From Octopus vulgaris (taxonomy: Eukaryota): a stretch of DNA of 64,000 nucleotides. The notes under the pieces are model-generated. The model searched no databases and was not told the DNA's origin. It saw only the letters and a list, made by a program, of their open reading frames with translations. Below are positions 30,489-64,000 of this stretch, piece after piece. Position numbers and translations under genes: made by a program. The DNA is taken from positions 5,952,001-6,016,000 of the forward strand of contig OX597831.1 of NCBI GenBank assembly GCA_951406725.2, given 5' to 3'. Within the stretch, counting starts at the first letter, position 1. The number at the start of each line of letters is the position of its first letter.

Positions 30489-31472
30489 AGCAGTCCCTAT
30501 CAAGGGTGCATGAACTAACAGCAGGCAGACAGATCTGAAATAAGTTATGCGCATATATTAGCTAAACCAAAATCAAATCAAATCAAATCAAATCAAAACA
30601 AATCAAAATAGATGAACATCTTGTGAAGACCTGTTGAGGCAAGTGAAAATCAAAATCAAAATCAAATCAAATCAAATCAAAATAGATGAACATCAATGGA
30701 ATTTGTATCTTTGTGGTACCAGTGCCGGTGGCATACAAGAAAACCATCCGAACGTGGCCGTAGCCAGTACCGCATCAACTGGCCTCCGTGCTGTGGGCAC
30801 GTAACAAACACCATCCGATCGTGGCCGTTCGCCAGCCTCACCTGGCACCTGTGTCGGTGGCACATAAAAACACCATCCGAGCGTGGCCGTCTGCCAGCCT
30901 CGTCTGGCACTGTGTCAGTGACACATAAAAAAAAAAAAGAAAAAAAAAAACACCATCCGAGCGTGGCCATTCGCCAGCCTCGTCTGGCACCTGTGTCGGT
31001 GGCACATAAAATCACCCACTACACTCTCAGAGTGGTTGGCGTTAGGAAGGGCATCCAGCTGTAGAAACACTGCCAGATCTGACTGGCCTGGTGCAGCCTT
31101 CGGGCTCCTCAGACCCCAGTTGAACCGTCCAACCCATGCTAGCATGGAAAGTGGACGTTAAATGATGATGATGATGATGATGATGATACAAGACAAATGG
31201 AATACAATGCAATATTTGCTGTAAACTCTAACAAAAACTATTTTTTGGGTTCATATTCCATCAGAGACGACTTCACCTTTCCTCACTGCATCCGTCTGGA
31301 AAAGTAACTGTCACTCACAAACTAGTTTCTTTGAGATTTGCCTCTAAACTTTCATCCTGTATTGATCCCTCCTGTTTGAACTTGGAATCGTGGACAGGCT
31401 AAAATTATGAAACATGGTAACATTAGCCAAATCACAAGCCCAAATCCTAAGAGAATATTTTAGAACAGCAAA

Positions 31473-33088
31473 CCCGTCCACCCAGATAACCCATCCACCC
31501 AGATGTCCTATCCACCCAGATGTCCTATCCACCCAGATGTCCCATCCACCCAGATGTCCCATCCACCCAGATGTCCTATCCACCCAGATGTCCCATCCAC
31601 ACAGATAACCCATCCACCCAGATGTCCCATCCACCCAGATATCCCATCCACCCAGATGTCCCATCCACCCAGATATCCCATCCACCCAGATGTCCCATCC
31701 ACCCAGATAACCCATCCACCCAGATAATCCATCCACCCAGATATCCCATCCACCCAGATATCCCATCCACCCAGATGTCCCATCCACCCAGATGTCCCAT
31801 CCACCCAGATATCCCATCCACCCAGATAACCCATCCACCCAGATGTCCCATCCACCCAGATAACCCATCCACCCAGATAATCCATCCACCCAGATGTCCC
31901 ATCCACCCAGATGTCCCATCCACCCAGATGTCCCATCCACCCAGATATCCCATCCACCCAGATATCCCATCCACCCAGATGTCCCATCCACCCAGATGTC
32001 CCATCCACCCAGATAACCCATCCACCCAGATTTCCCATCCACCCAGATATCCCATCCACCCAGATAACCCATCCACCCAGATGTCCCATCCACCCAGATA
32101 ACCCATCCACCCAGATTTCCCATCCACCCAGATATCCCATCCACCCAGATATCCCATCCACCCAGATGTCCCATCCATCCACCCAGATATCCCATCCACC
32201 CAGATAACCCATCCACCCAGATGTCCCATCCACCCAGATAACCCATCCACCCAGATTTCCCATCCACCCAGATATCCCATCCACCCAGATATCCCATCCA
32301 CCCAGATGTCCCATCCATCCACCCAGATATCCCATCCACCCAGATAACCCATCCACCCAGATAACCCATCCACCCAGATGTCCCATCCACCCAGATGTCC
32401 CATCCACCCAGATAACCCATCCACCCAGATGTCCCATCCACCCAGATAACCCATCCACCCAGATTTCCCATCCACCCAGATATCCCATCCACCCAGATAT
32501 CCCATCCACCCAGATGTCCCATCCATCCACCCAGATATCCCATCCACCCAGATAACCCATCCACCCAGATAACCCATCCACCCAGATTTCCCATCCACCC
32601 AGATATCCCATCCACCCAGATATCCCATCCACCCAGATGTCCCATCCACCCAGATAACCCATCCACCCAGATAACCCATCCACCCAGATAACCCATCCAC
32701 CCAGATATCCCATCCACCCAGATGTCCCATCCACCCAGATGTCCCATCCATCCACCCAGATATCCCATCCACCCAGATAACCCATCCACCCAGATAACCC
32801 ATCCACCCAGATTTCCCATCCACCCAGATATCCCATCCACCCAGATATCCCATCCACCCAGATATCCCATCCACCCAGATAACCCATCCACCCAGATAAC
32901 CCATCCACCCAGATAACCCATCCACCCAGATATCCCATCCACCCAGATATCCCATCCACCCAGATAATCCATCCACCCAGATATCCCATCCACCCAGATG
33001 TCCCATCCACCCAGATGTCCCATCCACCCAGATAACCCATCCACCCAGATATCCCATCCACCCAGATATCCCATCCACCCAGATAACC
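31473..33088. repeat. 17-bp minisatellite, about 95 units
   Basis: Unit CCCATCCACCCAGAT(AT/GT/AA/TT) with occasional 21-bp variants. Confidence 0.97.
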
Positions 33089-34037
33089 AACACATCTTCT
33101 GGCATATTACAATTACATTTTGTGGCAGTCATCAAAAACGTCAGTAAATATCAAAAGATCAGCTTTGGTCTTTGTGCCAAAATACAAATATTTCAAAACA
33201 TTCACCATTCTGTTATAGAAGACTGCAATTCAATCTCTCATCAGAGATATCTTAACAGCGAAGTCAGGCTGTTAAAAGGCATTCTCTTTCCTTTCTCTTT
33301 CACTTGCATCATTTTCTGTCACTCTTTCTCTCCAATATATGCAAGAGTCAGCAAACACGAGTATGATATACATTGCTTTTTCAGCATTCTTTTGTTAGAA
33401 ACATACATCTTTTTTGTATGTATGTGTGCGTGCATGTTTGTGTGAGAGAGAACAAGTGAGTGCCACTTACACATATATGCAAAAATATATATACACGACA
33501 ACACACACCTTCACTCACACTCTCTCTCTCTTCCTCACACATGCGCACGTGCACACACACACACGTCCATTTCATATACACGTACTTTCATCTTTAACTT
33601 TCTGCTCTCCCTTCAAAGCAAATATTGCCTTTTCACTTTCTCCTCCCTTTCAATTTCCACTCTCACTTGAAAGCAAATGTTGCCTTCCAAAGGGGAGTAA
33701 GGAGATAAAAATTTTTTACAGAAATTAACGTACAATCATATGATCAAGATGACAGCTAAGGCGACATTTGCTTTGAAGTGAGAACAGAAATTGAAAGAGA
33801 GGAGAAAGTGAAAAGGCGACATTTGCTTTGAGGTGAGAGCTGAAAGTGAAAGATGTATGTATGTGTATATGAAATGTGTGTGCATGTGTGTGAGTGAGTG
33901 AGTGAAGGTATGTGTTTTTTTTGCCTGTATGTGTAAGTGGCTCTCTCTCTCTCTCACGCATACACACACACACACACATTACCTTTCATATACAAATACA
34001 TACATAAATACATATGTATACATCTTTTTCGTATGTA

Positions 34038-34069
<32 letters not shown>

Positions 34070-34827
34070 GATGAGAGAGAATGAGTGAGTGCCACTTAGA
34101 TATACATGCAATAAAAAATACACACACCTTCACTCTCTCTCACACTCTCTCTCTCTCTCTCACACACACACACGTACATACATACAAAAAAGATGTATGC
34201 AAATGTATTTAAAGAATGCCCTTTTCCTACCTCTCTTGCTAGCATGTGTTGGACGGTTCGACCGGGGATCTGGGAAGCCAGAAGGCTGCACCAGGCTCCA
34301 GTCTTATCTCGCAATGTTTCTACAGCTGGATGCTCTTCCTAACGCCAACCACTCCGTGAGTGTAGTGGGTGCTTTTTACGTGCCACTTGCACTGGTGCCA
34401 GGCGAGGCTGGCATCGGTCACGGTCGGATTGGTGCATTTTACGTGCCACCTGCACATTTTACGTGCCACCTACACAAAAGAAATAAATATTTTAATATGC
34501 TCTTATCCAGTTATCAACTCCACTCCTTGCTACATTTTTACTTTTCGATGATTATTTTCTTCAAACATCGATACAGGCCCCGAAGCTTTTCTCATCGTCG
34601 TTCATTCACCACACCACTAAACCTTATACTCAGGGCTCGTCTTAACAGTATCATCAACTGTATCAGATCCCGGGCAAATCAGTGAACGGGCCCCAATAAT
34701 ACATATTCACTGACAGCAAGCCACAGTAGATACAAATGAGAATTGAGTCCCTAGATCTGTGTCCTACTACCGGACAGCTGTCTAACGTACCCTTGCCCTT
34801 AAAACGGTACTAGTTATAATCGGAAAA

Positions 34828-35060
34828 GGCGGCGAGCTGGCAGAATCGTTAGGACGCCGGGCGAAATGCTTTGCGGTATTTCGTCTGTATTTACGTTCTG
34901 AGTTCAAATTCCGCCGAGGTCGACTTTGCCTTTCATCCTTTCGGGGTCGATAAATTAAGTACCAGTTACGCACTGGGGTCGATGTAATCGACTCAATCCG
35001 TTTGTCTGTCCTTGTTTGTCCCCTCTGTGTTTAGCCCCTTGTGGGTAGTAAAGAAATAGA
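34828..35060 (+). mobile_element. tRNA-derived SINE family B (Nin/Deu-like core)
   Basis: GGCGGCGAGCTGGCAGAA..GAGTTCAAATTCC..GCCTTTCATCCTTTCGGGGTCGATAAA; 18-bp TSD TACTAGTTATAATCGGAA. Other copies: 18234-18650, 19403-19637, 28260-28675, 37178-37408, 46670-46885, 50115-50344, 61228-61445, 63629-63858. Confidence 0.88.
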
Positions 35061-35322
35061 TACTAGTTATAATCGGAATAAAAGAAGAAATAAATTAACT
35101 GTCTCTCATTGCTTTACTCTTTTTTCTGTTTAATTAAGTTCGGATTAACATCAAGCACACACAAAACTCCGGCCAGAAAAGCTGTCAAAACTTGTTTAAA
35201 CAAGTAAACTATTAATTAAAATATATCTTTAAGAAAACTTTTATAGGAATTTAAAAGAAAAGAATCCAGCAAAAAAAAATACAACGGACAGATACGATGG
35301 CTTGAAATATTAGAAAACTAAC

Positions 35323-35572
35323 CTTTTCTTGTTTTGTTTTCTTTTGTTTTACATCAGAATGTGTTGAATTTGTTTACATTATTAGAATTGTTGGATCACA
35401 TCTGCCAAAAATTTGAAAATGTAAATAAAAACTTTTTCTGCTGAGGAAAAAATGTTTGTTTCGTTATTCGACTCTCAAATTAACGCGGGTCACTTATATC
35501 AATGACAAAATTAAATTACACTAAATTAAACACTTTTCATTGATGATATTTATACGTGTAAGTTATACACAA

Positions 35573-35635
<63 letters not shown>

Positions 35636-35770
35636 CACATCCATAAACACTGATAGAGAGTGAGAGGGTGGGGCGATTTTATTTTTTATTGTTCTAAGCG
35701 GTTTCATAGTCGGACCCAGACCGCAAAACGATTTTTAAGTAAATGTTGTTCTGATTGATGAATCTGTCAG
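35323..35770. promoter_or_regulatory. Putative bidirectional promoter and non-coding first exons of HELQ (-) and the CYREN-like gene (+)
   Basis: Unique CpG-containing DNA between divergent genes. Outward-facing donors: AAG|GTTAGT on minus (35322) and CAG|GTAATA on plus (35771). GC box GGGTGGGGCG near 35666 and a central (TG)n. Inferred, no transcript data. Confidence 0.45.
35575..35632. repeat. (TG)n microsatellite in the putative bidirectional promoter
   Basis: Pure TG run. Confidence 0.95.
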
Positions 35771-36231
35771 GTAATACGACTTATTTATTGTCTTTGCTTT
35801 GTTTTTTTTCCACCCGGCTCTTCTTCCCTCCCAAGATGAAGTCCCAAACAAGAAACAGTTCATTACAATTATCATTAAAAAAACGAACGAACATCACACG
35901 ATCCTATCTCTTATTGTTATTGTTTAGCACCAGTTCAACCACCCCGCCAATAAAAGTTGTTCCAATCGTTATTATCCAGTGTTTTATTGCGACAGTGTAT
36001 CTAGGAGTATAATCTCCAATGCATCCGCTCTATATTTGTTGGTCGTATTTGACTGATCATGCTGGAGCACCACCTTTAGTCGAACAATTCGACCCCAGGA
36101 CTTATTCGTAGTAAGCCTAGTACTCATTCTATCGGTCTCTTTCGCCAAACTAAGTTACGGGGACACAAACAAACCAACATCGATTGTCAAGCGATGGTGG
36201 GAGGACAAACACAGACACAAACATATATATA

Positions 36232-36269
<38 letters not shown>

Positions 36270-36382
36270 GGGAGAATTTGCGAAAAAAACATAAGACGAA
36301 GACAGGTGGTGTGCAAAACAAACAGATGTATTAGTATAACGCTCAGGAATAGAAAAAGTCTTTTACGTTTCGAGCCTACGCT

Positions 36383-36423
<41 letters not shown>

Positions 36424-39298
36424 GGCGGGCTTCCTCCAGTTTCCGTCTACCAAATCTACTCACAAGGCTTTGGTTGGTCTGATGCTACAGAAGACACTTG
36501 CCCAAGATGCCATGCAGTGGGACTGAACTCAGAACCTGTTGGTTGAGAAGCAAGCTTCCTACCACACACCCACTCCTGTGTTTGATAATTTGTTTGACAA
36601 AAACCCTTCTAGGTTGTGTACATATATATGTATGTATGATAGTGTCTTGTTAAGACAGAAATTCTGATGTAGACATTAAAGTGTGGTTGAAGGAAATTTG
36701 CTTGCTGTTTACATTTCGTCCAGTGATCGTGGGGAGTGGGGTGGGGTCACTTAATTTGTTCTTCACAGATTTTAGTTGTTGCAAAACATCAGTATTTGTT
36801 ATTTTGAACTATTTCATAATGTATTGATATTTCCTGATATGTTTGTTCGTTTCTGTTGTACGCCGAGGTCAACTTTCACTTTCATCCTTCCGGGGGTCGA
36901 TGAAATAAGTACCAGATGAACACTGGGGTCAATGTTATCGATTTATACCCCCCGTTCCAAAATTTCAACCTTTTTATCCCTTCCTTTGAAGTAAGTGTGA
37001 CACACACCACAGGTACATATGGGATAAAACAAGTTTACATATTAATATTGAGGATAATAATAATAATGATGATGATGTTTTCATATTTTGGGCCCAAGGC
37101 CAGCAATTTCATGGGAGTGGGAGTGGGTGAGTTAATTATATTAACCCAATGTGTCACTGGTACTTACTTTATTTCAAGGCGGCAAGCTGGCAGAAACGTT
37201 AGCACGCCGGGCAAAATGCTTAGCGGTATTTCGTCTGTGTCACGTTGTGAGTTCAAATTCCGCCGAGGTCGACTTTGCCTTTCATCCTTTCGGGGTCGAT
37301 AAATTAAGTACCAGTTACGCACTGGGGTCGATGTAATCGACTTAATACCTATGTCTGTCCTTGTTTGTCTCCTCTGTGTTTAGCCCCTTGTGGGTAATAA
37401 AGAAATTGGTACTTACTTTATCAACCCTGAAAGGATGAAAAGTAAAGTCGACCTTGATGGAATTTGAACTCAGACCATAAAGATAGGCAAAATGCTTAGC
37501 ATCATTTTGACTGACATGCTAATGATTCTGCCAGCTCACCACTAATAATAATAATAATAATAATAATGAGTGACAGTTGCTGAGTAATTAAAAAATTAAT
37601 AGAATTTGTCGATGTGGCTTTTCACTAAAATACAAGGTCTGATCAATAAGTATCCAGATTGTTGCCATAGTAACAAAGCTAAAGCACGCAGAGTGAAGCC
37701 GTTTGACACAGATTGACCTTGGATTTGGCTGTGCATGCCCACTAAATTTTAACATTCTAGCTTACTTCCACTGTTTACAGCAGTGCTTGGAAGGAACAAG
37801 TGTAGTGTGTGATTATTGCATTGACCATAACAGAAAGTTGTCATGACGATACCTGCTCAGAGGCCTCTGCAAAGTTGTAGGAAGTGTATGAAGAGAAGGG
37901 TATGGGCCACTTGGTCAGAATTATCTTTTACATGGCTCGCAGGATGGCCTGTTGTGCTTGAGGAGACCTATTGTGTCAAGTACATCAACATCAAAATAAA
38001 AATCAAATGGTTATTGTAGTTGTAATACCCGTGCCGGTGGCATGTTGGGACTCACAGAGGAAATGACGAAGACCGAGACCTCTGAGATATGCTGTGACTG
38101 TGAAGACCCAACAAATGAAGTGAGTTCATGGCTTGCAGGACAACCTGCTGTGCTAATCTTGGATCGTAGAGTGACCTGCTGTTCTTGAGGGGACCTACTG
38201 AGTCAAGTACATCAACATCAAAATAAAAATCAAATGGAAATTTTAGTTAAACTACCCGTGCCGGTGGCACGTAAAAAGCACCATCCGAACGTGGCTGATG
38301 CCAGCGCCATGTGACTGGCATTCGTGTCGGTGACACGTAAAAAGCACCAACCAATCGTGGCCGTTTGCCAGCCTCCTCTGGCTCCTGTAGCGGTGGCACG
38401 TAAAACGCACCCACTACACTCACTGAGTGATGATGCAACAAGGAAGGGCATCCAGCTGTAGAAACACTGACAGATCAGACTGGAGCCTGGCGCAGCCTCC
38501 TGGCTTCCCAGACCCCGGTCGAACCATCCAACCCATGCTGGCATGGAAAACGGACGTTAAACGATGATGATGATGATGATGATATGTCTCTTAATCTATC
38601 GGTCTCCATTCATTTATATCTTTCTGGGTTGATTTTGTTGTTGTGTATGTCCACTTGTCTGATTTAAATATTCCTACTCATACTTTGTCAAGGTCAATCT
38701 GTACCTGGCGGCTTCACTGTATGTGCTTTACCTTCATTACCATGGCAACAGTCCGGATACTTATTGGTCAGACCACGTATCTGGTCTATTGGCTTGAATA
38801 GCTTAATCAGCTTGAACACTAAAGTTCCTAAGAAAAATGATGTCTTTATTTTCTACTACTTTGGCAGGCTTTTGTTCCCATCAGAACTCATTTGGGAGTC
38901 CAGACTTACAGCATGTGACCCAGTGCAAACACTAATTAGGCCTATCATGGCAATTGGTTCACTCAGTTGAGGCTAACACAGAACAGCCAGAGATGAGGTC
39001 AGTTAATCGTTTCTCTGATGGTACCACAAAAGTGGCAGGTAGGATCAGCAAATATTTTTCAGAATGTTACTTTGCTAATTTCTAATTCCCCCCTTCCGTA
39101 AACCACCTGTTCTTGTCCCTTTATCATACTTTCACCTTTCTTAATACTATACTCCAATTATTTACATTTGACAGATATTTGTCCTCATCTTGTTTGTTGT
39201 TAACACAATGTTTCAGCTGATATACCTCCAGCTTTCATCTGGTGTTTTGGGGAAATTTCAAACCTAGGTTCTTGTTCCTAAGGTATTTTTCGATGTTG

Positions 39299-39347
<49 letters not shown>

Positions 39348-41803
39348 CATTATTAAGACAAAGAGCGCGATTCGATTGTAAGATATTTTATTAGTTGAAT
39401 GATATTTCAACAGTACGTCTGTCTTTGTCAAGTTCAAAATAAGAAGTGATAAGAATTCAAAATTACAGAAATTTAAATGTAAAGTATGAATGAGAGCAAC
39501 CAGCGTCCACACATCATCATTATTATTCAGGTCACTGCCTGGAATCAAACTCGGAATCTTGGGGTTAGTAGCCCACGCTCTTAACCCAAATGTAAATAAT
39601 GTAAATAATAACAACATTGAAAAATACCTTAGGAATGAGAACCCAGGTTCGAAATTTCCCCTAGACACCTGATGAAGACTGGAGCGTATATCAGCTGAAA
39701 AATTGTGTTAACAACAAACATGATGAGGACAAATATCCGTCAAATGTAAATAATTCTTCATCTCTTAAATATAGAACTGTACTATACTCCAACTCACTTG
39801 AGAAGCTCTTGTCTTGCAAGTTACTTGGGGACTTCCCTAGTACTGGTACCATTAAAAAAAGCACACAGTACACGCTGAAAAAGTGGTAGATGTTAGGAAG
39901 AATATCAAACTGTAGAAACCACAACAAAGCAAGACATCGAAAGTTGGCACAGTCCTCTGGCTCTTTGTTTCTTGTTGATCCATCCCACTAAAACTGGAAT
40001 GGAAAAAGAGATGTTAACTTATGATGATACATGCACACACATTCTTTTATTTGTTTCAGTCATTTGACTGCAGCCATCCTGGAGCAACGCCTTTAGTCAA
40101 ACAAATTGACCCCCAGGACTTATTCCTTATAAGCCTAGTACTTATTCTATCAGTCTCTTTCGCCAAACTGCTAAGTTACAGGGACATAAACACACCATCA
40201 TCAGTTGTTAAGCAATGGTAGCAGGGGGACAAACACAGACATACAAACACACACACACACATATATATATGACGGGCTTCTTTCAGTTTCCATCTGCCAA
40301 ATCCACTCACAAGGGTTTGGTCAGCCCGAGACTATAGCAGAAGACACTTGCCCAACATGCCATGCAGTGGGACTGAACCCAGAACAATGTGTCTGGTCAG
40401 CAAGCTACTTACCACACAGCCACTCCTATGCCTATACATAATATACACATGCATTGTGTATGTATGTGCGTGTGTGTGTGTGTTGATAAATGACAAAAGA
40501 ACAGGTGTTACATAATCACTCTCATTAGCTTACAGCTGTTTCTGCCGTAATAAATATTGCACGCAGAGCTGCATGCTTATAGCTTTCTTGAAGCCATTTA
40601 TAGTGCAAAGCAATTAGATGCACAGAATTGGTTACATACAGAACAATATATTTAATAATATAATGCAGTTTGAGAGTGAAAAGCCTGTCCAGAGATATAC
40701 AAATACACATATATATATATATATATTTATATAATTGAGGCTCAGTTGAATTAGGTACTTAAGGTGAAGCACCAAGTCAGTCCGGTATTATCTGCACAGC
40801 CCGAAGTAAGGTGAATAAAATTGAAATAAGCAACAGGATATCAAGCAGTGATATTCTGTTGCTTCTTTTCATTTTATATAGATATGTATTCTTTTATTTG
40901 TTTCAGTCATTTGACTGCAGCCATGCTGGAGCACCACTTTTAGTCAAACAAATCAATCCCAGGACTTATTCTTTGCAAGCCTAGTACTTATTCTGTCGGT
41001 CTCTTTTGCTGAACTGCTAAGTGATGAGAATGTAAACATACCAACATTGGTTGTCAAGTGATGGTGGTGGGTACAAGCACAGACACAAATAACAAACACA
41101 CACATACATAAATATAAATGACAGGCTTCTTTCAGTTTCCGTCTACCAAATCCACTCACAAGGCTTTGGTCGGCCCGAGGCTATAGTAGAAGACACTTGC
41201 CCAAAGTGCCACACAGTGGGACTGAACCCGGAACCATGTGGTTGGTTAGCAACCTACTTACTACACAGCCACTCCTGTGCCCTTAGTTTGACATGTCTTG
41301 TCAAATACAGCAAATTGCCATATCGATTTTTTGTGTTGTTATATATATATATATATATATATATAACAACATATATATATATGCTCGAATATAACAACAC
41401 AAAAAAAAACGACCCTTCATCAGTTGTTGAATGTTTTTCTATTCTCGTATGCTAGTCCTTCATAAAAGAAAGATAGAAAAGAAAATATAAGGGAAAGGAA
41501 TGAGAAAAGGTGTTTGGGGACATAATATACGTACATGTGTATATATATGTATTGAAAGATAGAGGGAAAAACTCACATGCACAAACGCACACACGCACAC
41601 GAATATACATAAATACATGCAAATAGATAGACATGTACTTATACAGATATACATCTATGATTTTTTACAAAGAATCTATATTAAAATACAAAAAATAAAC
41701 AACTGTTTTTTCTTCATTTATTGGTTGATTTTGTTCTTTCAGGGACAAACTAAATTCTTAACTTGTTCTATCTTGGGGCCACACCACTAAACATTCCAAC
41801 ACA

Positions 41804-41952
41804 ATGTCAAAGAGGTCTAATAGAAAGCGGATACTTCCACAGTGGATGCTGTCTACAAGAGATTCTGAAACTACAAGAGATTCTGCTGATGATCAGCTTG
41901 ATGCCGATTGTGATGTTGAGTCAGAAGATAATGACCAAGAAGGGAATTCTAA
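41804..41952 (+). CDS. CYREN: CYREN-like coding exon 1 (Ku-binding motif, acidic tract)
   Basis: Acceptor TTCTTTCAG ending 41742, ACAATGT start, donor AA|GTATTG. Confidence 0.8.
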
Positions 41953-44900
41953 GTATTGGTTTATCTTTTATTAAATGTTTTTGGTTATCTCTAACCCTGT
42001 GCCTGTCCAAAGAATTTACATAAGTTTGTCTCAAATGTCCATACTTTTTTTCAAGCTTTAGTTTAACCATTGTTTCATACATTCTGAGTAATATAAAGCT
42101 ATCCTTTCTTATGTCCTAAATGATGAATAATTCTCCAAAGGTGGGAGATCTCTAAGGGTTATTTGCAGAAAGTGGAGCCGCAATTGCCCAGTGGTTAGGG
42201 CAGTGGACTCGCAGTCATAGGATCACGGTTTCGATTCCCAGACCAGGTGTTGTGAGTGTTTATTGAGCGGAAACACCTAAAGCTCCACGAGGCTGCAACA
42301 GAGGGTAGTGGTGAACCCTGCTGTACTCTTTCACGACAACTTTCTTCTTGTTTCTGCTGTACCTGTATTTCAAAGGGCCAGCCTTGTCACACTGAATCTC
42401 CTCAAGAACTATGTTAAGGGTACACACATCTGTGGAGTGCTCAGCCACTTGCACTGAGCAGGCTGTTCTGTTGATCGGTTTAACTGGAACCCTTATCACT
42501 GTAACCGACAGAGTGCCACGATTTGCAGAAAACCCACAAAACCATGATCACCTTGACCACTAGGACACATGTTGGTGGCTGAACAAAACCGGGAATGTGT
42601 ATCATAATATATGACCTATAGACACTAGGAAAATATGTTCTGTATATCACATGTAATACTAAGAACAGACAAAGAGTTAAGAATTCAAACATAAAGATTC
42701 AAAGTTTTACAAAACAAATTAGCATGTACATTATTTACATTATTTACATTATTTACATTTGACGGATATTTGTCCTCATCTTGTTTGTTGTTAACACAAC
42801 GTTTCAGCTGATATACCCTCCAGCCCCTTCATCAGGTGTCTTTGGGAGATTTCAAACCTGGGTTCTCATTCCTAAGGTATTTTTCAATGTTATAATTATT
42901 ATTATTCATCGTTTAGCGTCCGCTTTCCATGCTAGCATGGGTTGGATGATTTTGGCTGAGGGCTGGCGAACCAGATGGCTGCACCAGGCTCCAATCTTGA
43001 TCTGGCAGAGTTTCTACAGCTGGATGCCCTTCCTAACACCAACCACTCCGAGAGTGTATTATTATTATTATTATTCAGGTCACTGCCTGGAATCGAACAC
43101 AGAATCTTGGGATTAGTAGCCCACGCTCTTAACCACTACACCATATGCCCGTGGGCACTTGATGAAGGCTGGAGGGTATATCAGCCAAAACATTGTTAAC
43201 AACAAAGAAGATGAGGACAAATATCCATCAAATATAAATAATGTAAACAATGTACATAATTCCTCATCTCTTAAATATAGAACTAAATTAGCACGTATTA
43301 GCCCATGGTTGGGAATCAAGCTTCTTAACCTCACTGCTATGCCTGCACCAAATTTTTCCAAATTGCAGTTGCCGTAATTAATTAGTTACATGCTGCCTTA
43401 TTGCATTATTTTTGATATAACGATTGTTCATTATGAAGAAATGTAGTTGGTTTACCATATTTCCACCAGCCTTGACCGAGCCAACACAGTAATGTATATG
43501 ATGAGTGAACAAGAGCTGCTACATGTTGCCATGAAAACACTTCATACGGTAAGACTAAAGTTGTATATGATGCTTGTCCTAATTCAGCATGAATCACCAT
43601 TTCCAACTAATAGGGTTTGGACAATCCCCACATTATCTCACCATTCATTTCACATTGGTCACATGTTTATTCCTTCTCGAGCCATGCCTGGCTCATAAGG
43701 GCCAGTTTCCCGGTTTCCTTGGTGTATAGGTTCCCCACCTGGATGGGACACCGGTCCGTCGCAGGTGAGCTACAAGATGCAGGAGGAAAGAGTGAGGGAA
43801 AGTTGTGGCGAAAGAGTCAGCGTGGAGCTTAGATGTTTCGCTCATAAACACACATTTCGCCCAGTCTGAGATTCAAACCCACGATCCCTCAAGTGCTAGT
43901 CCGCTGCTCTAACCACTAGGCATTGGTCACATTGGTCACATACAGCAACTGAGAAAATCTTCCATTTCTAACCATAAATTCCATAAGCCTTCATATATTT
44001 GACCAGCAGTGCTACATAATAGTGAAACATGTGTAGAGAGATGTGTGAAGAAGTGCCACTCCCAAACAGTTGAAAGAATCCGGGGTAGGGGTAGCCTCAG
44101 GAAGACATGAGATGAAGTGGTCAAGCATGGCCTTCGAACGTTGGGCTTCACAGATGATTTGTCTGTAAAATTAAGCACTTTATGGATATGAAACCATTGG
44201 TCACTCTCTGACTGGACATAGACTTAACGGCATGTCAGTATATTACTGCTCTAGCCTTTGGAGGGTGTTTCTTTTCTGGATATATAATACACTGATGATA
44301 TGTATTTTTGTTGGTCTTTTTATATGTGTGTGTGTGTGTATGTGTAAAAGCATCCATTACACATTACACTTTCAGAGTGGTTGGCATTAGGAAGGGCATC
44401 CAGCTGCTGAAAATCATGCCAAATCACACTGGAGTCTGGTGCAGTATGCCAGTATAGATAACAAATATTAAATGATGATGATGATGATGAGGGTGTGTGT
44501 GTGTATACACATGAATTTTAATTGCATATATTATCCTTAGTTCTTTCCTATTTTTGATTTGATTTTAGGAAAAGGAAGATCTTTGTTCTGATGAAAAACC
44601 CACCACAAAACCTACCAAAATATGTTTCAAAAACAAAACTCTTGTTGACTTTCAAACATCCAGTCATCGGAACCGAGTAAATTCTGTTGCTATTAACGAT
44701 AACAGCATCGATGATAATGACAACAACAGAAGGGTTGACACGAGGCAACAAATCAACAAAAGTCGTCACACGAAAATCAAATCTCATAAGAAAATTAAGG
44801 ATTCTGTTAAAAACAAAAAATTAAAAACCAAGACACCAAAGACTTCAAGAAAAGATATTGAACCTGTTCCTCCAGATACATTGTCTGGTCACAGCCATCA

Positions 44901-45123
44901 AAAAACCACAAGAGTTTCAGGTACCATATTGACTAACCGAGATGTTGAGACAGATCAGATAGCAACAGACAAAGACATTCATATTAATAACAAACAGCGG
45001 ACAGATGAAAATATTCAAAAGGATAAAAATGGACCCACTTTACCCTTTACTATATTCAGCTCCAGAGAAACAATCTCTCGTCAAAAACCCGATTTATCAA
45101 TTTTAGATGAAATATTTTTGTAA
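41804..45123 (+). CDS. CYREN: CYREN/MRI-like NHEJ adaptor, 260 aa, join(41804..41952,43470..43548,44569..45123)
   Basis: Phases 2 and 0 match across GT-AG introns. N-terminal MSKRSNRKRILPQWML (APLF-type Ku-binding motif RxxPxW), middle TVMYMMSEQELLHVAMKTL, C-terminal DLSILDEIFL*. Same three-motif order as vertebrate CYREN (recalled, not searched). Confidence 0.8.
43470..43548 (+). CDS. CYREN: CYREN-like coding exon 2 (MRI central motif)
   Basis: TTTCCACCAG acceptor, ACG|GTAAGA donor; 79 nt restores the frame. Confidence 0.82.
44569..45123 (+). CDS. CYREN: CYREN-like coding exon 3 (disordered, C-terminal LDEIFL)
   Basis: TTTTAG acceptor, 555-nt open frame, TAA overlapping AATAAA. Confidence 0.8.
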   Translation, partial: EKEDLCSDEKPTTKPTKICFKNKTLVDFQTSSHRNRVNSVAINDNSIDDNDNNRRVDTRQQINKSRHTKIKSHKKIKDSVKNKKLKTKTPKTSRKDIEPVPPDTLSGHSHQKTTRVSGTILTNRDVETDQIATDKDIHINNKQRTDENIQKDKNGPTLPFTIFSSRETISRQKPDLSILDEIFL

Positions 45124-47103: not shown

Positions 47104-48351
47104 TCAGTTTAAGGGTTTCCCTCCAGCATGTATCCGTTCGTGTCTTTTTAAAAGGGTGCTTGTGATAAACGATTTCTCACAGATGTCACAGTGATACGGT
47201 TTCTCTCCGGTGTGAACCAGTTTGTGTCGGTTTAAGTCGCTGTTATTGACAAATGATTTCCCACAGACTTCGCAAGGGCAGGGTTTTTCCCCGGTGTGTC
47301 TACGTTTGTGACTTATAAGATCAGAATTCCGATTGAACGATTTGCCACACATCTCACAAAGATAGGACTTTTCTCCCGTGTGAATCTGCTTGTGGACGAC
47401 CAGAGTCGAATTTTTACAGAACGAATTGCCACACACATCACAGCAATACGGCTTTTCTCCCGTATGTATTTGCGTGTGACGTTTTAAATCATGGTTTTTA
47501 AGGAAAGCTTTCCCACAGATTTCACAAGGATACGGCTTCACCCCCGTGTGTATTTTTTTGTGTGTATTCAAGTGGCCGTTGGTGAGGAAGGCCTTGCCAC
47601 ACACTTCACAACAATAAGGTTTCTCACCAGAATGCATGAGTACGTGTATCGCAAGTTGTGAATTCACATAGAACGACTTCCCACACAAATCACAGTGATA
47701 AGGTTTTTCTCCAGTGTGAACCCGCTCATGGCTTTTCAAATCACTACTATTCACAAAAGTCTTCCCGCACAGCTCACAGTGATAGGGCTGTTCTCCCGTG
47801 TGTCTACGTATGTGGATGGTAAGCTTGGAATTTTCAATGAAAGACTTTCCACATATTTCGCAATGGAACGGGTTTTCCCCTGTATGGATTCGTTTATGTC
47901 TCGTTAAATTACTGCTATCAACAAAACATTTCCCACAAACTCCACAAAGATATGGTTTCTCCCCCGTGTGACTACGTATGTGGATAACAAGAGCCGAATT
48001 ATTAATAAAAGATTTTCCACAAATTTCACAGTGAAATTGTTTTTCTCCCGTATGGATTCTCTTGTGATTCGTTAAAACACTGTTATACACAAAAGACTTT
48101 CCACATATATCACAGTGGTACGGTTTCTTCTTATTGTGTATTTCTTGGTGTGTGAAAAGTTCATGTTCTGAAGAGAATGTTTTCTTGCAGTTCACACACT
48201 TATATTCCGGAATTTTTCTTTCCACTGAACTTTGATTTGTAAACGTTTTAGTAAGTAAAACTTTCTCTCCGATGCATGTCTGTGTAACTGAACCTACACT
48301 GTTGAAAACGGGTGTCTTGTTACAAGACTCCAAGTAATTCACATCCTCCAT
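47104..48351 (-). CDS. C2H2 zinc-finger protein, 13 tandem fingers, single coding exon
   Basis: 415-aa ORF with 13 CxxC-x12-HxxxH units and TGEKP-type linkers; no recognisable effector domain. Confidence 0.95.
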   Translation of the reverse strand: MEDVNYLESCNKTPVFNSVGSVTQTCIGEKVLLTKTFTNQSSVERKIPEYKCVNCKKTFSSEHELFTHQEIHNKKKPYHCDICGKSFVYNSVLTNHKRIHTGEKQFHCEICGKSFINNSALVIHIRSHTGEKPYLCGVCGKCFVDSSNLTRHKRIHTGENPFHCEICGKSFIENSKLTIHIRRHTGEQPYHCELCGKTFVNSSDLKSHERVHTGEKPYHCDLCGKSFYVNSQLAIHVLMHSGEKPYCCEVCGKAFLTNGHLNTHKKIHTGVKPYPCEICGKAFLKNHDLKRHTQIHTGEKPYCCDVCGNSFCKNSTLVVHKQIHTGEKSYLCEMCGKSFNRNSDLISHKRRHTGEKPCPCEVCGKSFVNNSDLNRHKLVHTGEKPYHCDICEKSFITSTLLKRHERIHAGGKPLN

Positions 48352-50114
48352 ATTAATTCTAAGGGAATTCTTAAAAACTGAGAAATGTCAACGAGCGTAA
48401 TCTGGATCAGCTTCCTCGTCTTGGCTTCATAGAGTTGCGTCTACATGTGTAGAAAATATGCAATGTAGAGATATTTTCAACTTACCACTAGAACGCTTGT
48501 GGATGATTTGGTCCTTTCCAAAATATTGTGATTTGTAAACCAAAATATTGCGATTTCTTGGCTTAAAATTGTGGATATTGTTAACTGGTGCTTTGTGGAG
48601 TAAAATAAAATATTTTGTCTATAGTGTGAGCAATCACTCTGGTGAAATGTGTGGGGGGTTTTTTCTTTCTTTTTTTATTGACAGTTTAAAACCGATGACT
48701 AAGAAATACAGACCAGTTTACACACGACTCCATATATATAGTCTTGTAGTCGTAATAAATGAAGGTTGTTCACAACGTATGGTAGAAAGGTGTACAATGA
48801 GTGGGATGATCACAATTCAACAAAATTCTGGATTTCAACTTGAAGGCTGCTGAGGCAGTTTTTTCCATGTTCAGCAAATTGGGGCGAAACCAATTCACGT
48901 TGTAATGTAATTTGGGGAGAACCTAAATATATGATTGATGGAACATCGACCGAAAAACATGTGATCCACAAAACATTTAAAACTCAACTTAACATGAGAC
49001 GATCATAATAAACGATTCGGTCTTAATTAATTAGTAATTAAATACAGACGCTTTACAGGCGGTGCCAGTTAGAATTTTCCCCACTCGGATGATACCGGTG
49101 GCATATGTTGCATGTCCCTATTAAAATTTAATGTATTGAGAAACACTTCGTTATTTAGATTTTGTTTGTTCCTTCTCGAGCCACACCTGGCTAATTAGGG
49201 ACGGTTTCCCCTGTTTCTTTGGCGTATAGGTTCCCCACCTGGACGGGACGCCGGTCTGTCGCAGGTGAGCTGCAAGATGCAGGAGTGAGAGAAAGTTGTG
49301 GCAAGAGAGTCAGCAGAAGTTCGCCTTAACCTTCTGCCGGAGCCGCGTGGAGCTTAGGTGCTTCGCTCATAAACACACACATCGCCCGGTCGGAGATTCG
49401 AACCCGCGATCCCTCGACCGCGAGTCCGCTACTCTAACCACTAGGCCATGTGCCTCCACAAATAAATAATAAATGCGACCTTTTTAAAGCCTAGTCAGGC
49501 TCATGGGACGGTTTCCAGGTTTCAATGGCGTGTGTGTTCCCCAGATGGACGGGATGCCACTCCATCGCAGCGTTACTCATTTTTGCCAGCCGAGTGGACT
49601 GAAGCAACGTGAAATGAAGTGTTTTGCTTAAGAACACAACGCGTCGCCCGGTCCTGGAATCGAAACCACTCCATCGTTTACTGAACTTATTAAACTCGCA
49701 ATTTATTCGATTCGCGTTAAAAATAAATGATTCCGGTATATATCGGGAATCGCGAACTGCAAAAAAAACAACTGTAAGAATATCGTAGTTTATTTGAAAT
49801 ACGGAAACGAAAACAAACTATTGTTTACAATCTTAAACTACAAAGAGAAACAAAAAATATTTTAAAAGTATGGAGAGCAAAACGACCCTTTTGGTAATTT
49901 AGAGGTATTTAATTAAGAACAACGTTAAAAAAAAAAAAACATAAATTGTAAGATGAATCGGTGTATAAGTCTGCAGTAATTATCTTAAGTAACAATGAAA
50001 CAAGCAATGAATCTTTCGTTTCGCTATTTCAGGAAAACACGAAGTGTTTATACAATCTCAATTTTTAGCTGGTTAGGTCGCGATTCTCTCTATTTACCGA
50101 TATTTCATACTTAA

Positions 50115-50344: not shown

Positions 50345-50639
50345 CATACTTAAATTAACTCAATTCAAAAACTAAATACATCTACGATTATTTCAAAGTT
50401 TTCGCTGGAGATATTTTAGAAAGTAGATGCACGTCTCTCTTGACAAAAAGTTAAATATACATTACAAGATGTAGAAATGTATGACAGTCAAAATAAATTT
50501 TGAATTTAGACGTAAGTATTTCGTTTCGGTTATTCTGTATAGCCAAATTATTTTTGTATATTCCCCATTATTGTTGGTTTCATTTTAATTGACGCCGCTT
50601 TTTGCAAGGATTACCATTTTCTTTTAAATTTTTAACATC

Positions 50640-52064
50640 ATGTCACCACGCGGGAGGCGATTAAGCCCCAAAACTTTATGCACCGATATCGTTGACGATG
50701 AAAAAACTATTCGCGAGTCTTGGACATTTTGTGAACTCGTTCAACATATTTCGACAAATGATAAAGCAATTGAATGGTTGGCGAAATATAAGCTTATAAG
50801 CAATTCTGTTACATGTCCAGCTTGTGGGAACCCGTGTACGATTATCGGCTATAAGCAAGGAATTGACGGGAAACGATGGAGATGCCCGAATCATAATTTC
50901 TCTCGATCAATTCGTAAAGGATCCGTGTTCGAGAACAGTCGTCTCTCGCTGACAACATTCACATGGCTTATGTATATGTGGTCGAGGGATTATCTGCTTT
51001 TCGAAATGGCCCATGAGACAAACGTTTGTATGAAGTCGATTATTGATCTGATCCGACTGGTCCGAGAACTATTAGAACGGTTCCTGGAAGATCATCCGGC
51101 AGAATTAGGTGATGTCCCACCCGAGATTGGAGGGTTCGATTTAGAGACAGGTGAACCCAAAATCGTTGAAATAGATGTAACAAAATTTGTTAAATCTAAA
51201 CGCAATGAAAAGAAACATGCGAAAGAATTTTGGGTTTTTGGTGGAATCGAACGGGGAAGTGAGAAATGCTTTCTAGTACCGATTGAGTATCAAAATAAAG
51301 AAGCTTTCGAAGCTGCGATTATCCGATGGATTTTACCAGGTATGGTTTAGAAAATCCGGTTTCTCTTTTATTTGTATCATCTTCAATCTGTTTTTAAATT
51401 TGGCTTCACAGGGACCATTCTTTACCCCTCCCCTTTAATTACACCTGTCGTTCTTTAGTTTTAACGCCAATGGCTCGTTAATATCTGTGGTGTGTTAAAC
51501 TTACAGGAAGTTAGTATCATTAAAGCCAATGGTCATATCTGGCGGGTTGGTACTAAGTACCAACGCACCTGTGATCACCCTTCTAAGATACAAACTTCTT
51601 GTTTTAAAGTTATCTAAATTCTTCCATCAAAATCTCTTGTGAATTTATGTTCCATACACCAGCTTGATAATGTTAAGTTTTTTGCTAAATATGATATTTT
51701 CGAAATTATCTAAAGCAAAGGCAATTTATTTCCACAGAAATAACAATAGGGTGTTTTGGCATAAGTACAGATTAGTGCCTCAACTTTTCGTGTAACTTTC
51801 TGAAAAGGGCAACTTTTTAAACGAAACTCTCTAGAAGTATGCTTGGGAGGGTATAAATTACAATTGTTCACACGAAACTATATATTTTATGTATATATGA
51901 ATGAGTATATATACACACACACATATATATCTAAATGTATTTATTATATCAGTCTCTTTTGCCGAACCGCTAAGTTACGGGGACGTAAACACACCAGCAC
52001 TGGTTGTCAAGTGGTGGTAGGGGTCAAACACAAACAAAAAAACACATACATACACGCACATGTG

Positions 52065-55100: not shown

Positions 55101-55815
55101 TAAAAGCACCCACTACACTCTCGGAGTGGTTGGCGTTAGGAAGGGCATCTAACTGTAGAAACTCTGCAGATCAAGACTGGAGCCTGGTGCAGCCATCTGG
55201 TTCGCCAGCCCACAGTCAAACTGTCCAACCCATGCTTGCATGGAAAGTGGACATTAAATGATGATGATGATGATGACGACTACCACATATCCTCTGGATG
55301 GGGAACATAGCCATGCCATTCTCCCCATTGTTTGTGCAATCCCTATAGTGTTGTAGTGAATGTTAACAGCCAAGTTTATGAGCAAGATTTGGTTTTTGTT
55401 TTAATCAGAATCCATTTTCATCTTTGAGTTCTTGGAAAATGTAGGAATGACACAAACCTTCATTTCACATCCTCTATAAATATAAAGGTTCATGACAGCT
55501 TTTTTTGTTTTTCTTTTTTGTCTTGTAGGTACCCTCATTGTGTCTGATATTTGGGCAGAATATCTGGAAATCGATCAAATCCAACAAGGCATATATACTC
55601 ATGAATTAATAGATTATAATGATTCAGAAGACACAGAAATCCACACCAGAAATATAGACAAGTTGTGGATAAGATTAAAAAAACAATTTCAAAGAAAACA
55701 TATCAAATTTCTATTTCAGTCTTTCTTAACGGAATTTACATGGAGAGCTCACTTTAAAAATACCGACAAATTTGCTGCTTTAATTTATTGTATAAAACAT
55801 TTGTATAAAGTTTAA
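50640..55815 (+). CDS. Merlin/IS1595(ISXO2)-like transposase-derived protein, 328 aa, join(50640..51339,55529..55815)
   Basis: Zn ribbon CPAC..WRCPNH, IVEIDVT, WVFGGIERGS, WILPG|TLIVSDIWAEY, HTRNIDKLW, FLTEFTWR. Phase-1 intron CCAG|GTATGG..TTGTAG; probable 5'UTR intron 50512-50608; AATAAA overlapping the stop. Confidence 0.88.
52150..53190 (+). mobile_element. Decayed RTE-clade LINE 3' fragment (RT) inside the Merlin-gene intron
   Basis: VGVHQDSILSPLLFVIV, PWELLYADDL, KVNLAKT, Cys-rich CSIC..CIQC..HKRC, WFGHVMHM, GKPWKTW; several stops and frameshifts. Confidence 0.9.
54295..54495. mobile_element. hAT (Charlie-like) MITE
   Basis: TIRs CAGTGGTTTTCAA / TTGAAAAGCACTG, perfect 8-bp TSD CTCTAGAC. 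Confidence 0.85.
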
Positions 55816-62700: not shown

Positions 62701-63184
62701 CAAATTAAAATGTGTTTTTTTAATGATCTTCAAATTGAAACTCAGTATTTATTGGATTGTGATCACATCTCTTGTTGTACACTTTTCTATCATCCGTTGT
62801 GGACGGCCCTGATTTCTTAGGACTACAAACACACACTAACACACGTTTCTTTCTCAGACATTGGTCTTAAACAGTTTATTTTTTACTTTATTTACACTTG
62901 TACTGAGTGTACCAGATTTCACCAGAGTCATTACATAGTCTATATTTTTCTACCTTACCTAGTACCTGTTAACAATATCCACATTCGTTGATATCAGAAA
63001 TGAAAATATTTTAGTCTACAATACTTGTGCCACCTGGAAAGGACCCCAGGCATTCTAGTAGTAAGCAGAAAACCTATACGTATGGCATATTTTCTACACA
63101 TGTAAACGTAATCTTGTGATATCAGATGGCAAGCTGAACCAGACTACGCTCACAGACATTTCTAAGAATTCCCTTAGAATTAAA

Positions 63185-63415
63185 ATGGAGGATGTGAATT
63201 ACTTGGAGTCTTGTAACAAGAAAACACCCGTTTTCGATAGTGTAGGTTCAGTTACACAGACATGCAGCGGAGAGGAAGCTTTATTTGATAAAATGTTTAT
63301 GAATCAAAGTTCAGTGGAGAAAGAAATTCCTGAATATAACTGTGAGAATTGTAGGAAAGCATTCTCTTCAGAACATGAACTTTTCACACACCAAGAAATA
63401 CACAATAAGAAGAAG
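63185..63415 (+). pseudogene. Paralogue of the 47104-48351 zinc-finger gene, interrupted after finger 1
   Basis: MEDVNYLESCNK..FSSEHELFTHQEIHNKK is highly similar to the first copy. Homology stops at 63414, where repeat sequence begins. It could instead be an exon (AAG|GTGATC). Confidence 0.7.
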
Positions 63416-64000
63416 GTGATCTTTTCCTTTTTGAACGGCAGTTTTCAACACAATTTCTAGATAACTAAACACTTTTAAACTTCGTATACTGGTAGAATGT
63501 GTTTATAAAACATCATTTTTTCTTGGCTTTATTGAGAAAATTCTATAGTTTGTAACATATTTCCACTTTAAAATCGAGCATTTCGGCAATTTTAACCAAT
63601 CAAATACGTCCATTTGGGGTGAAAACATACCTATTTCTTTATTACCCACAAGGGGCTAAACACAGAGGGGACAAACAAGGACAGACATAGGTATTAAGTC
63701 GATTACATCGACCCCAGTGCGTAACTGGTACTTAATTTATCGACCCCGAAAGGATGAAAGGCAAAGTCGACCTCGGCGGAATTTGAACTCACATGGTAAC
63801 GCAGACAAAATACCACTAAGCATTTCGCCTGGCGTGCTAACGTTTCTGCCAGCTCGCCATGCTGTATGAATATGTCCCTCGTTTAAGAAACAGATTGGGT
63901 TTATTTACATTTGCGAAGAAAAAAAGATACCCTTCCCCCACCCCTAAACCTAACCCTAAAATAGATTGAAATGCAATAGATCGATACTAGGGTTATAATT
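63415..64000. mobile_element. Non-autonomous DNA element (Helentron/HINE-like?) with a nested SINE at 63629-63858
   Basis: Abrupt break of ZNF homology in an A-rich site; short CCCTAA-type repeat near 63941-63958; runs off the window. Confidence 0.45.

Follow-up and report, generated by a model that had tools for sequence, protein, structure and literature searches.

The gene described here lies on the plus strand of a 64,000-nucleotide (nt) stretch of Octopus vulgaris DNA (GenBank assembly GCA_951406725.2, contig OX597831.1, positions 5,952,001 to 6,016,000), which was analysed as a whole and is referred to below as the window. Its product, a protein of 260 amino acids (aa), appears to belong to the disordered Ku-binding adaptors of non-homologous end joining (NHEJ); it is quite probably a single-copy adaptor of the CYREN/MRI type that tethers ERCC6L2 to Ku. 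This reading is carried by three short motifs that follow each other in the same order as in human CYREN/MRI, and by the presence of both partners in the octopus genome with their named contacts largely kept. In window coordinates, the motifs are as follows:

41822..41851, plus strand: APLF-type Ku-binding motif, residues 7–16
43486..43542, plus strand: central segment resembling the multimerisation and ERCC6L2-binding segment of MRI, residues 56–74
45091..45120, plus strand: C-terminal motif resembling the XLF-like motif of MRI, residues 251–260, acidic and without a basic patch

The gene carrying these motifs consists of the following parts:

41743..41803, plus strand: probable 5' untranslated region of coding exon 1, after a pyrimidine tract and an AG at 41742
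41804..41952, plus strand: coding exon 1, 149 nt, from ATG to GT, residues 1–50, ending in phase 2
43470..43548, plus strand: coding exon 2, 79 nt, from AG to GT, residues 50–76, almost all of it conserved central segment
44569..45123, plus strand: coding exon 3, 555 nt, from AG to TAA, residues 77–260 and the stop codon, including a low-complexity polar linker

When joined, the coding exons amount to 783 nt and yield the 260-aa product. Both introns have GT and AG borders, and the junctions are in phase 2 and then 0. This structure had been proposed in the initial annotation of the stretch, and the start, middle and end of the protein quoted there were reproduced from the exons. The product is identical, letter for letter, to NCBI entry CAI9735740.1, a hypothetical protein of O. 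vulgaris. Two orthologues are present in RefSeq, LOC115219763 of O. sinensis (92% identity) and LOC106877878 of O. bimaculoides (86%); their models join to the same complete protein, and both bear the label 'uncharacterized', as had been foreseen. The gene had also been described as hidden, but it is annotated yet unnamed, since gene models exist in three Octopus species. A search of the genome with the whole protein returned the three exons of the gene and, besides these, one chance match interrupted by stop codons, indicating a single locus. Expression and splicing of the gene are predicted, resting on the existing gene models. A second O. vulgaris model, CAI9735741.1 (203 aa), begins at Met58 and is devoid of the Ku-binding motif, in which it resembles human MRI3 (residues 56–157); it may be either a genuine short isoform or an artefact of gene prediction.

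The human CYREN/MRI motifs, as given in the initial annotation, agree with those in the published papers, and the N- and C-terminal peptides of MRI are printed in Grundy 2016 (PMC4831024). Scoring was performed with the published human residues, the best octopus matches being found at residues 8, 57 and 251, and 20,000 shuffles were used for comparison. Taken in human order, the three motifs reached a sum of 67 versus 51 for the best shuffle (0/20,000), which upholds the order that had been claimed, while three unrelated control proteins scored 35–48 for all three motifs. The score of the Ku-binding motif alone was reached by two of the 20,000 shuffles, that of the central segment by 69, and that of the central and C-terminal motifs together (36) by 11. 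In the six frames of the window, each of three motif patterns, which were drawn after the sequence had been seen, occurs once, and all of these occurrences are in this gene (shuffle means of 0.06, 0.05 and 0.20).

According to Grundy 2016 (PMC4831024), the core of the Ku-binding motif is R-x-x-P-x-W, and the motif is common to APLF, WRN and MRI. In the octopus protein, the core occupies residues 9–14, near the N-terminus as in MRI, and R9, P12, W14 and M15 correspond to R11, P14, W16 and position 17 of human MRI. R9, P12 and W14 are found in all three Octopus species; position 10 is occupied by Lys in the motifs of O. sinensis and O. bimaculoides. In contrast to human MRI, the residue following Trp is Met instead of Leu, and Met in this position has been reported to increase the affinity for Ku80 more than 30-fold (Vu 2026, bioRxiv 10.64898/2026.07.22.740027). 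By analogy with human and mouse work, it is likely that the octopus N-terminal motif binds the vWA domain of Ku80.

Exons of Ku80, and of what we take to be Ku70, were found in the O. vulgaris genome. Alignment of O. vulgaris Ku80 with the human protein revealed that seven of the eight named pocket residues are kept (L68, D106, D109, I112, D116, Q119 and I150), S143 being replaced by Val. The octopus Ku80 models (590–602 aa, near 90.0 Mb of a contig designated C3) have no Ku_PK_bind match, and their tail is acidic-hydrophobic (ADDLLDEM), similar in character to the end of the CYREN-like protein. Genome searches for Ku_PK_bind, VIGSSK and PAXX gave no match, but the absence of these elements is not established because the controls were silent too, and the PAXX search had no positive control; Ku80 and ERCC6L2 were located through other protein families. 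XLF is a separate gene on contig C3.

The central segment aligns with human MRI without gaps at an offset of five residues. Of the ten published human residues, four are identical (Y54, M56, V64 and L69, corresponding to octopus Y59, M61, V69 and L74), and the other six pairs, human residue first, are T52 and V57, V53 and M58, C55 and M60, N57 and S62, L66 and M71, and I68 and T73. The distance from the Trp of the Ku-binding motif to the central Tyr is 45 residues in octopus versus 38 in human. Residues 49–81 of human MRI are described as a strand plus a helix through which the protein multimerises and which end joining requires (bioRxiv 10.64898/2026.07.22.740027); T52–Y54 are reported to bind the C-terminal domain of ERCC6L2, and MRI to bridge ERCC6L2 to Ku (bioRxiv 10.1101/2025.11.28.691009). 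An AlphaFold2 model of the octopus monomer, based on a three-row alignment, has a helix at residues 63–79 in its best-scoring block, with a predicted local distance difference test (pLDDT) value of 64. The octopus intron splits codon 50, nine residues before Y59, and the human isoforms diverge after residue 46, eight residues before Y54 (bioRxiv 10.64898/2026.07.22.740027); this similarity in intron position is only suggestive, since the human boundary is inferred.

The ERCC6L2 pairing was chosen for prediction because it distinguishes CYREN from other proteins that bind Ku. In O. vulgaris, the model of ERCC6L2 (834 aa) has an RHH_ERCC6L2 domain at 613–663, whereas the human contacts lie at 1213–1263. 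The contacts were anchored on Y657, equivalent to human Y1263, the others falling without gaps on Q607, M608, I609 and V617; two of the five named contacts are identical, two are hydrophobic changes, and one is of another kind. The gene shares its contig with the window, from which it is separated by about 39 Mb (near 44.83 Mb), and helicase exons that exist in the genomic DNA are absent from the protein model. Complex prediction with ERCC6L2 residues 590–678 and residues 48–84 of the octopus protein, in which alignments were not used and no interface was returned, gave a score of 0.57 versus 0.02 for the best control, with a contact agreement of at least 81% and a partner pLDDT of at least 62, and thus weakly supports the pairing. 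In calibration, 51 of 78 solved pairs passed the same mark, as did 2 of 108 mismatched ones. In a set of eukaryotic proteins, it was passed by 39 of 65 pairs for which there is no similar complex and by 2 of 126 unrelated ones, none of these sets involving peptides or disordered chains. Scores of up to 0.60 include 5 of the 78 solved pairs and all four passing mismatches. Some weight is given to the result because the pairing was guessed before the prediction, from the ERCC6L2 preprint. The contact between the octopus proteins is regarded as weakly predicted.

At the C-terminus, four of the ten positions of the human MRI terminal peptide are identical (L, E, I and F), and both EIF and its terminal position are kept. 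The AlphaFold2 model places a helix at residues 253–259 at low confidence. Residues 803–813 of O. vulgaris ERCC6L2, close to its C-terminus, score 20 against the human MRI terminal motif, versus 14 for the CYREN-like protein's own end.

Taken together, these features suggest the following mode of action. Residues 7–16 would dock in the pocket of the Ku80 vWA domain and so recruit the protein to Ku-bound DNA ends, while residues 56–79 would pair with the C-terminal domain of ERCC6L2, tethering this motor to Ku, and may also self-associate, as reported for human MRI. The C-terminal motif, placed across a linker of about 170 residues, would touch Ku or damage-response kinases as well, though less strongly. 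A role in repair is likely, judging from the human and mouse proteins. CYREN has also been reported to restrain joining in S/G2 (review PMC13276856); the octopus protein may either stimulate or restrain joining.

Comparison with O. bimaculoides demonstrated that the motif-bearing parts of the protein are the best kept, with exon 2 and the C-terminus clearly above the linkers. Identity is 13/16 in residues 1–16, 23/34 in the acidic linker, 25/26 in residues 51–76, 121/149 in the long middle part, and 34/35 in residues 226–260; for exon 2, the values in the other two Octopus species are 26/26 and 25/26. Conservation of the motifs in other cephalopods, which had been named as a check of the proposal, is therefore supported within the genus Octopus, and no relative beyond it was recovered among 1.84 billion proteins.

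The 260-aa protein is predicted to be mostly disordered and to have no globular domain. The FoldIndex-type score of the whole protein is −0.138, and the charge-hydropathy index is negative except near residues 55–80 and in the last 25 residues. AlphaFold2 modelling on three sequences gave a mean pLDDT of 42.9 and a predicted template modelling score of 0.14, with 219 of the 260 residues below 50, values that the shallow alignment also lowers. Based on net charge by block, one more feature was delineated:

44746..44850, plus strand: lysine-rich stretch, about residues 136–170

The composition of this stretch makes nuclear localisation or DNA contact possible.

The octopus protein shares with vertebrate CYREN/MRI (C7orf49 isoform 1, 157 aa, PF15325) its predicted disorder, the N-terminal APLF-type motif, a conserved segment in the centre that follows the Ku-binding motif by some 40 residues, a terminal EIF, and the lack of a folded domain. 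It differs in having a longer basic and polar linker and an acidic C-terminal motif, and, unlike members of PF15325, it is below the detection limits of Pfam and phmmer. All three partners of the ERCC6L2–MRI–Ku complex are found in the octopus genome, but this complex has been demonstrated in mammalian cells only (bioRxiv 10.1101/2025.11.28.691009), and its octopus version is weakly predicted. Short Ku-directed motifs in disordered tails are also described for WRN (C-terminal Ku-binding motif and XLF-like motif), XLF and PAXX; there they form the tails of folded enzymes or scaffolds, whereas in octopus the motifs make up the whole protein.

Several results weigh against the assignment to CYREN/MRI. 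Pfam searches of the exons and of the three full-length Octopus proteins returned no MRI match at E-values up to 10, and nothing at all below 0.1. A search of the O. vulgaris genome with PF15325 did not return the locus; it gave four weak matches elsewhere, none of them over the cut-off, and hence no better CYREN candidate. Among 1.84 billion representatives, phmmer with residues 1–80 found a single match, the O. bimaculoides orthologue, and the search with exon 3 retained 3 of 48 candidates, all of them from Octopus. Sequence searches of PDB with the whole protein and with residues 1–80 gave no matches at E-values up to 10, and an alignment-based metagenome scan confirmed none of 579 pattern matches. 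The C-terminal motif score alone was reached by 1,902 of the 20,000 shuffles and is not significant; this motif also lacks the basic patch. A control protein of 1,009 aa scored 38 for the central and C-terminal motifs, outscoring the 36 of the octopus protein, so these two motifs cannot single it out in a proteome, and the portion of the signal that points to CYREN in particular is modest. Residues 50–60 were modelled as a helix with a pLDDT below 50, and not as a strand. Furthermore, R-x-x-P-x-W is stated to be present in more than 600 human proteins (PMC4831024), and the octopus protein exceeds human MRI1 in length by about 100 residues.

The ESM Atlas search, on the other hand, revealed a CYREN cluster as the best Pfam-bearing match of the whole protein (0.85; 163 features; PF15325 on 26% of 102 members) and as the first match of residues 1–82 (0.81). 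According to the calibration, scores below 0.9, as in both of these cases, are to be taken as a lead only; in addition, only four of the ten best named matches fall into one family, a result that the tool classes as 'probably wrong'. For the whole protein, the CYREN cluster is outranked by an unnamed cluster from plants (328 members, 200 aa), which was the top match at 0.92 and the second match of residues 1–82 at 0.80. The CYREN match carries weight because the name preceded the search, which spanned 7.7 million clusters.

The best surviving alternative is that of an unrelated disordered Ku-binding protein that gained an APLF-type motif independently, the likeness of its central and terminal segments being due to chance. 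It would account for the missing profile or pairwise link to vertebrate CYREN, for a Ku-binding motif that APLF, WRN and MRI have in common (Grundy 2016), and for a C-terminal motif that roughly one shuffle in ten attains. However, the central segment has MRI-like spacing, is the best conserved part, and scores above 19,931 of the 20,000 shuffles; together with the weak model support for ERCC6L2 pairing and the naming of CYREN by the Atlas, this makes an independent gain unlikely. Even less probable is a real gene with no role in end joining, in which the basic N-terminus would be a nuclear localisation signal and the motifs would serve other partners. The core motif is indeed common, and the bare R..P.W means little alone, since it occurs seven times in the six frames of the window versus a shuffle mean of five. 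Against such a gene stand the three motifs in MRI order, the conserved partner surfaces and, suggestively only, the head-to-head arrangement with another repair gene described below.

APLF shares with the octopus protein the class of Ku80-binding motif and the Met after Trp, and carries FHA and PBZ domains. That the gene is an APLF that has been truncated or has degenerated, or a fragment wrongly split off from a longer repair gene, is nevertheless highly improbable, despite an APLF-like motif whose letters presumably match those of APLF closely (as given in the initial annotation), because Pfam detected neither FHA nor PBZ in the three Octopus proteins, the same complete open reading frame (ORF) is modelled in three species, FHA-like and PBZ exons sit together on another contig (C4) in what looks like a separate APLF gene, and the motifs of O. 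sinensis and O. bimaculoides have the above-mentioned Lys.

It is thus very probable, by analogy, that the octopus protein works like CYREN/MRI, and likely, albeit not formally established, that it is a true orthologue. The original proposal of a mollusc orthologue of the NHEJ regulator is partly supported, by the motifs, their order and the partner surfaces; the match to the MRI profile that had been suggested as a test was found neither by Pfam nor by the genome search with PF15325, and orthology is unproven. Formal membership in PF15325 is not claimed for this reason.

Upstream of the CYREN-like gene, the window contains a multi-exon gene for a Ski2-type helicase (3829–30557, minus strand) with DEAD, HTH_61 and POLQ_helical matches, which we take to be most likely HELQ. 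It continues beyond the window, where one more exon appears to be followed shortly by the end of the gene; a polymerase part was not seen. The two genes are placed head-to-head, and one feature was delineated between them:

34500..36500, no strand assigned: CpG-richer stretch with opposed donor-like sites at 35322 (minus) and 35771 (plus)

Given the head-to-head placement, a promoter near 35.3–35.8 kb may serve both of these break-repair genes. The region 31344–33150 harbors a tandem array of about 1.7 kb without CpG, with long spurious ORFs on both strands. On the other side, an ORF for a C2H2 zinc-finger protein with 11–12 fingers is found at 47104–48387 (minus strand), and a near-copy of its start, with the frame lost after one finger, at 63065–63460 (plus strand). 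The ORFs at 50628–51350 and 55486–55815 (both plus strand) seem to belong to a single gene derived from an ISXO2/IS1595-like transposase; of the two, only the latter has a Pfam match, which is below the cut-off.

In public family databases, some proteins of invertebrates are placed in MRI. In the literature searched, no paper on CYREN from a mollusc or cephalopod was found, but the species alignments and Table S1 of the MRI and PAXX preprints may list invertebrates; an apparent paper on insect CYREN proved to concern the species name cyrene. The MRI motifs are conserved among vertebrates (Grundy 2016, PMC4831024), and CYREN/MRI is described as the least conserved NHEJ protein in the PAXX preprint (10.1101/2023.05.26.542399), whose available part names no case outside vertebrates but a sea-urchin fusion with the N-terminal motif only. 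What is new here is the extension to molluscs; the mechanism itself is already known from mammals.

Octopus has neither V(D)J recombination nor class switching. If the reading of the gene as CYREN/MRI is correct, a three-motif mollusc CYREN and a conserved ERCC6L2 surface would place the origin of the module no later than the bilaterian ancestor. The module would then predate the rearrangement of vertebrate antibody genes, and its basic job at awkward DNA ends would be separable from its immune roles. It is conceivable, if rather doubtful, that the ERCC6L2–MRI–Ku bridge is ancient and that the plant cluster found in the Atlas represents a plant CYREN/MRI, missed since only three short motifs are conserved. 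Calls of absence based on profiles would be unsafe for the CYREN/MRI family, an anonymous gene in three octopus genomes would gain a name, and the octopus protein would serve as a naturally occurring variant with which to probe the importance of individual MRI residues.

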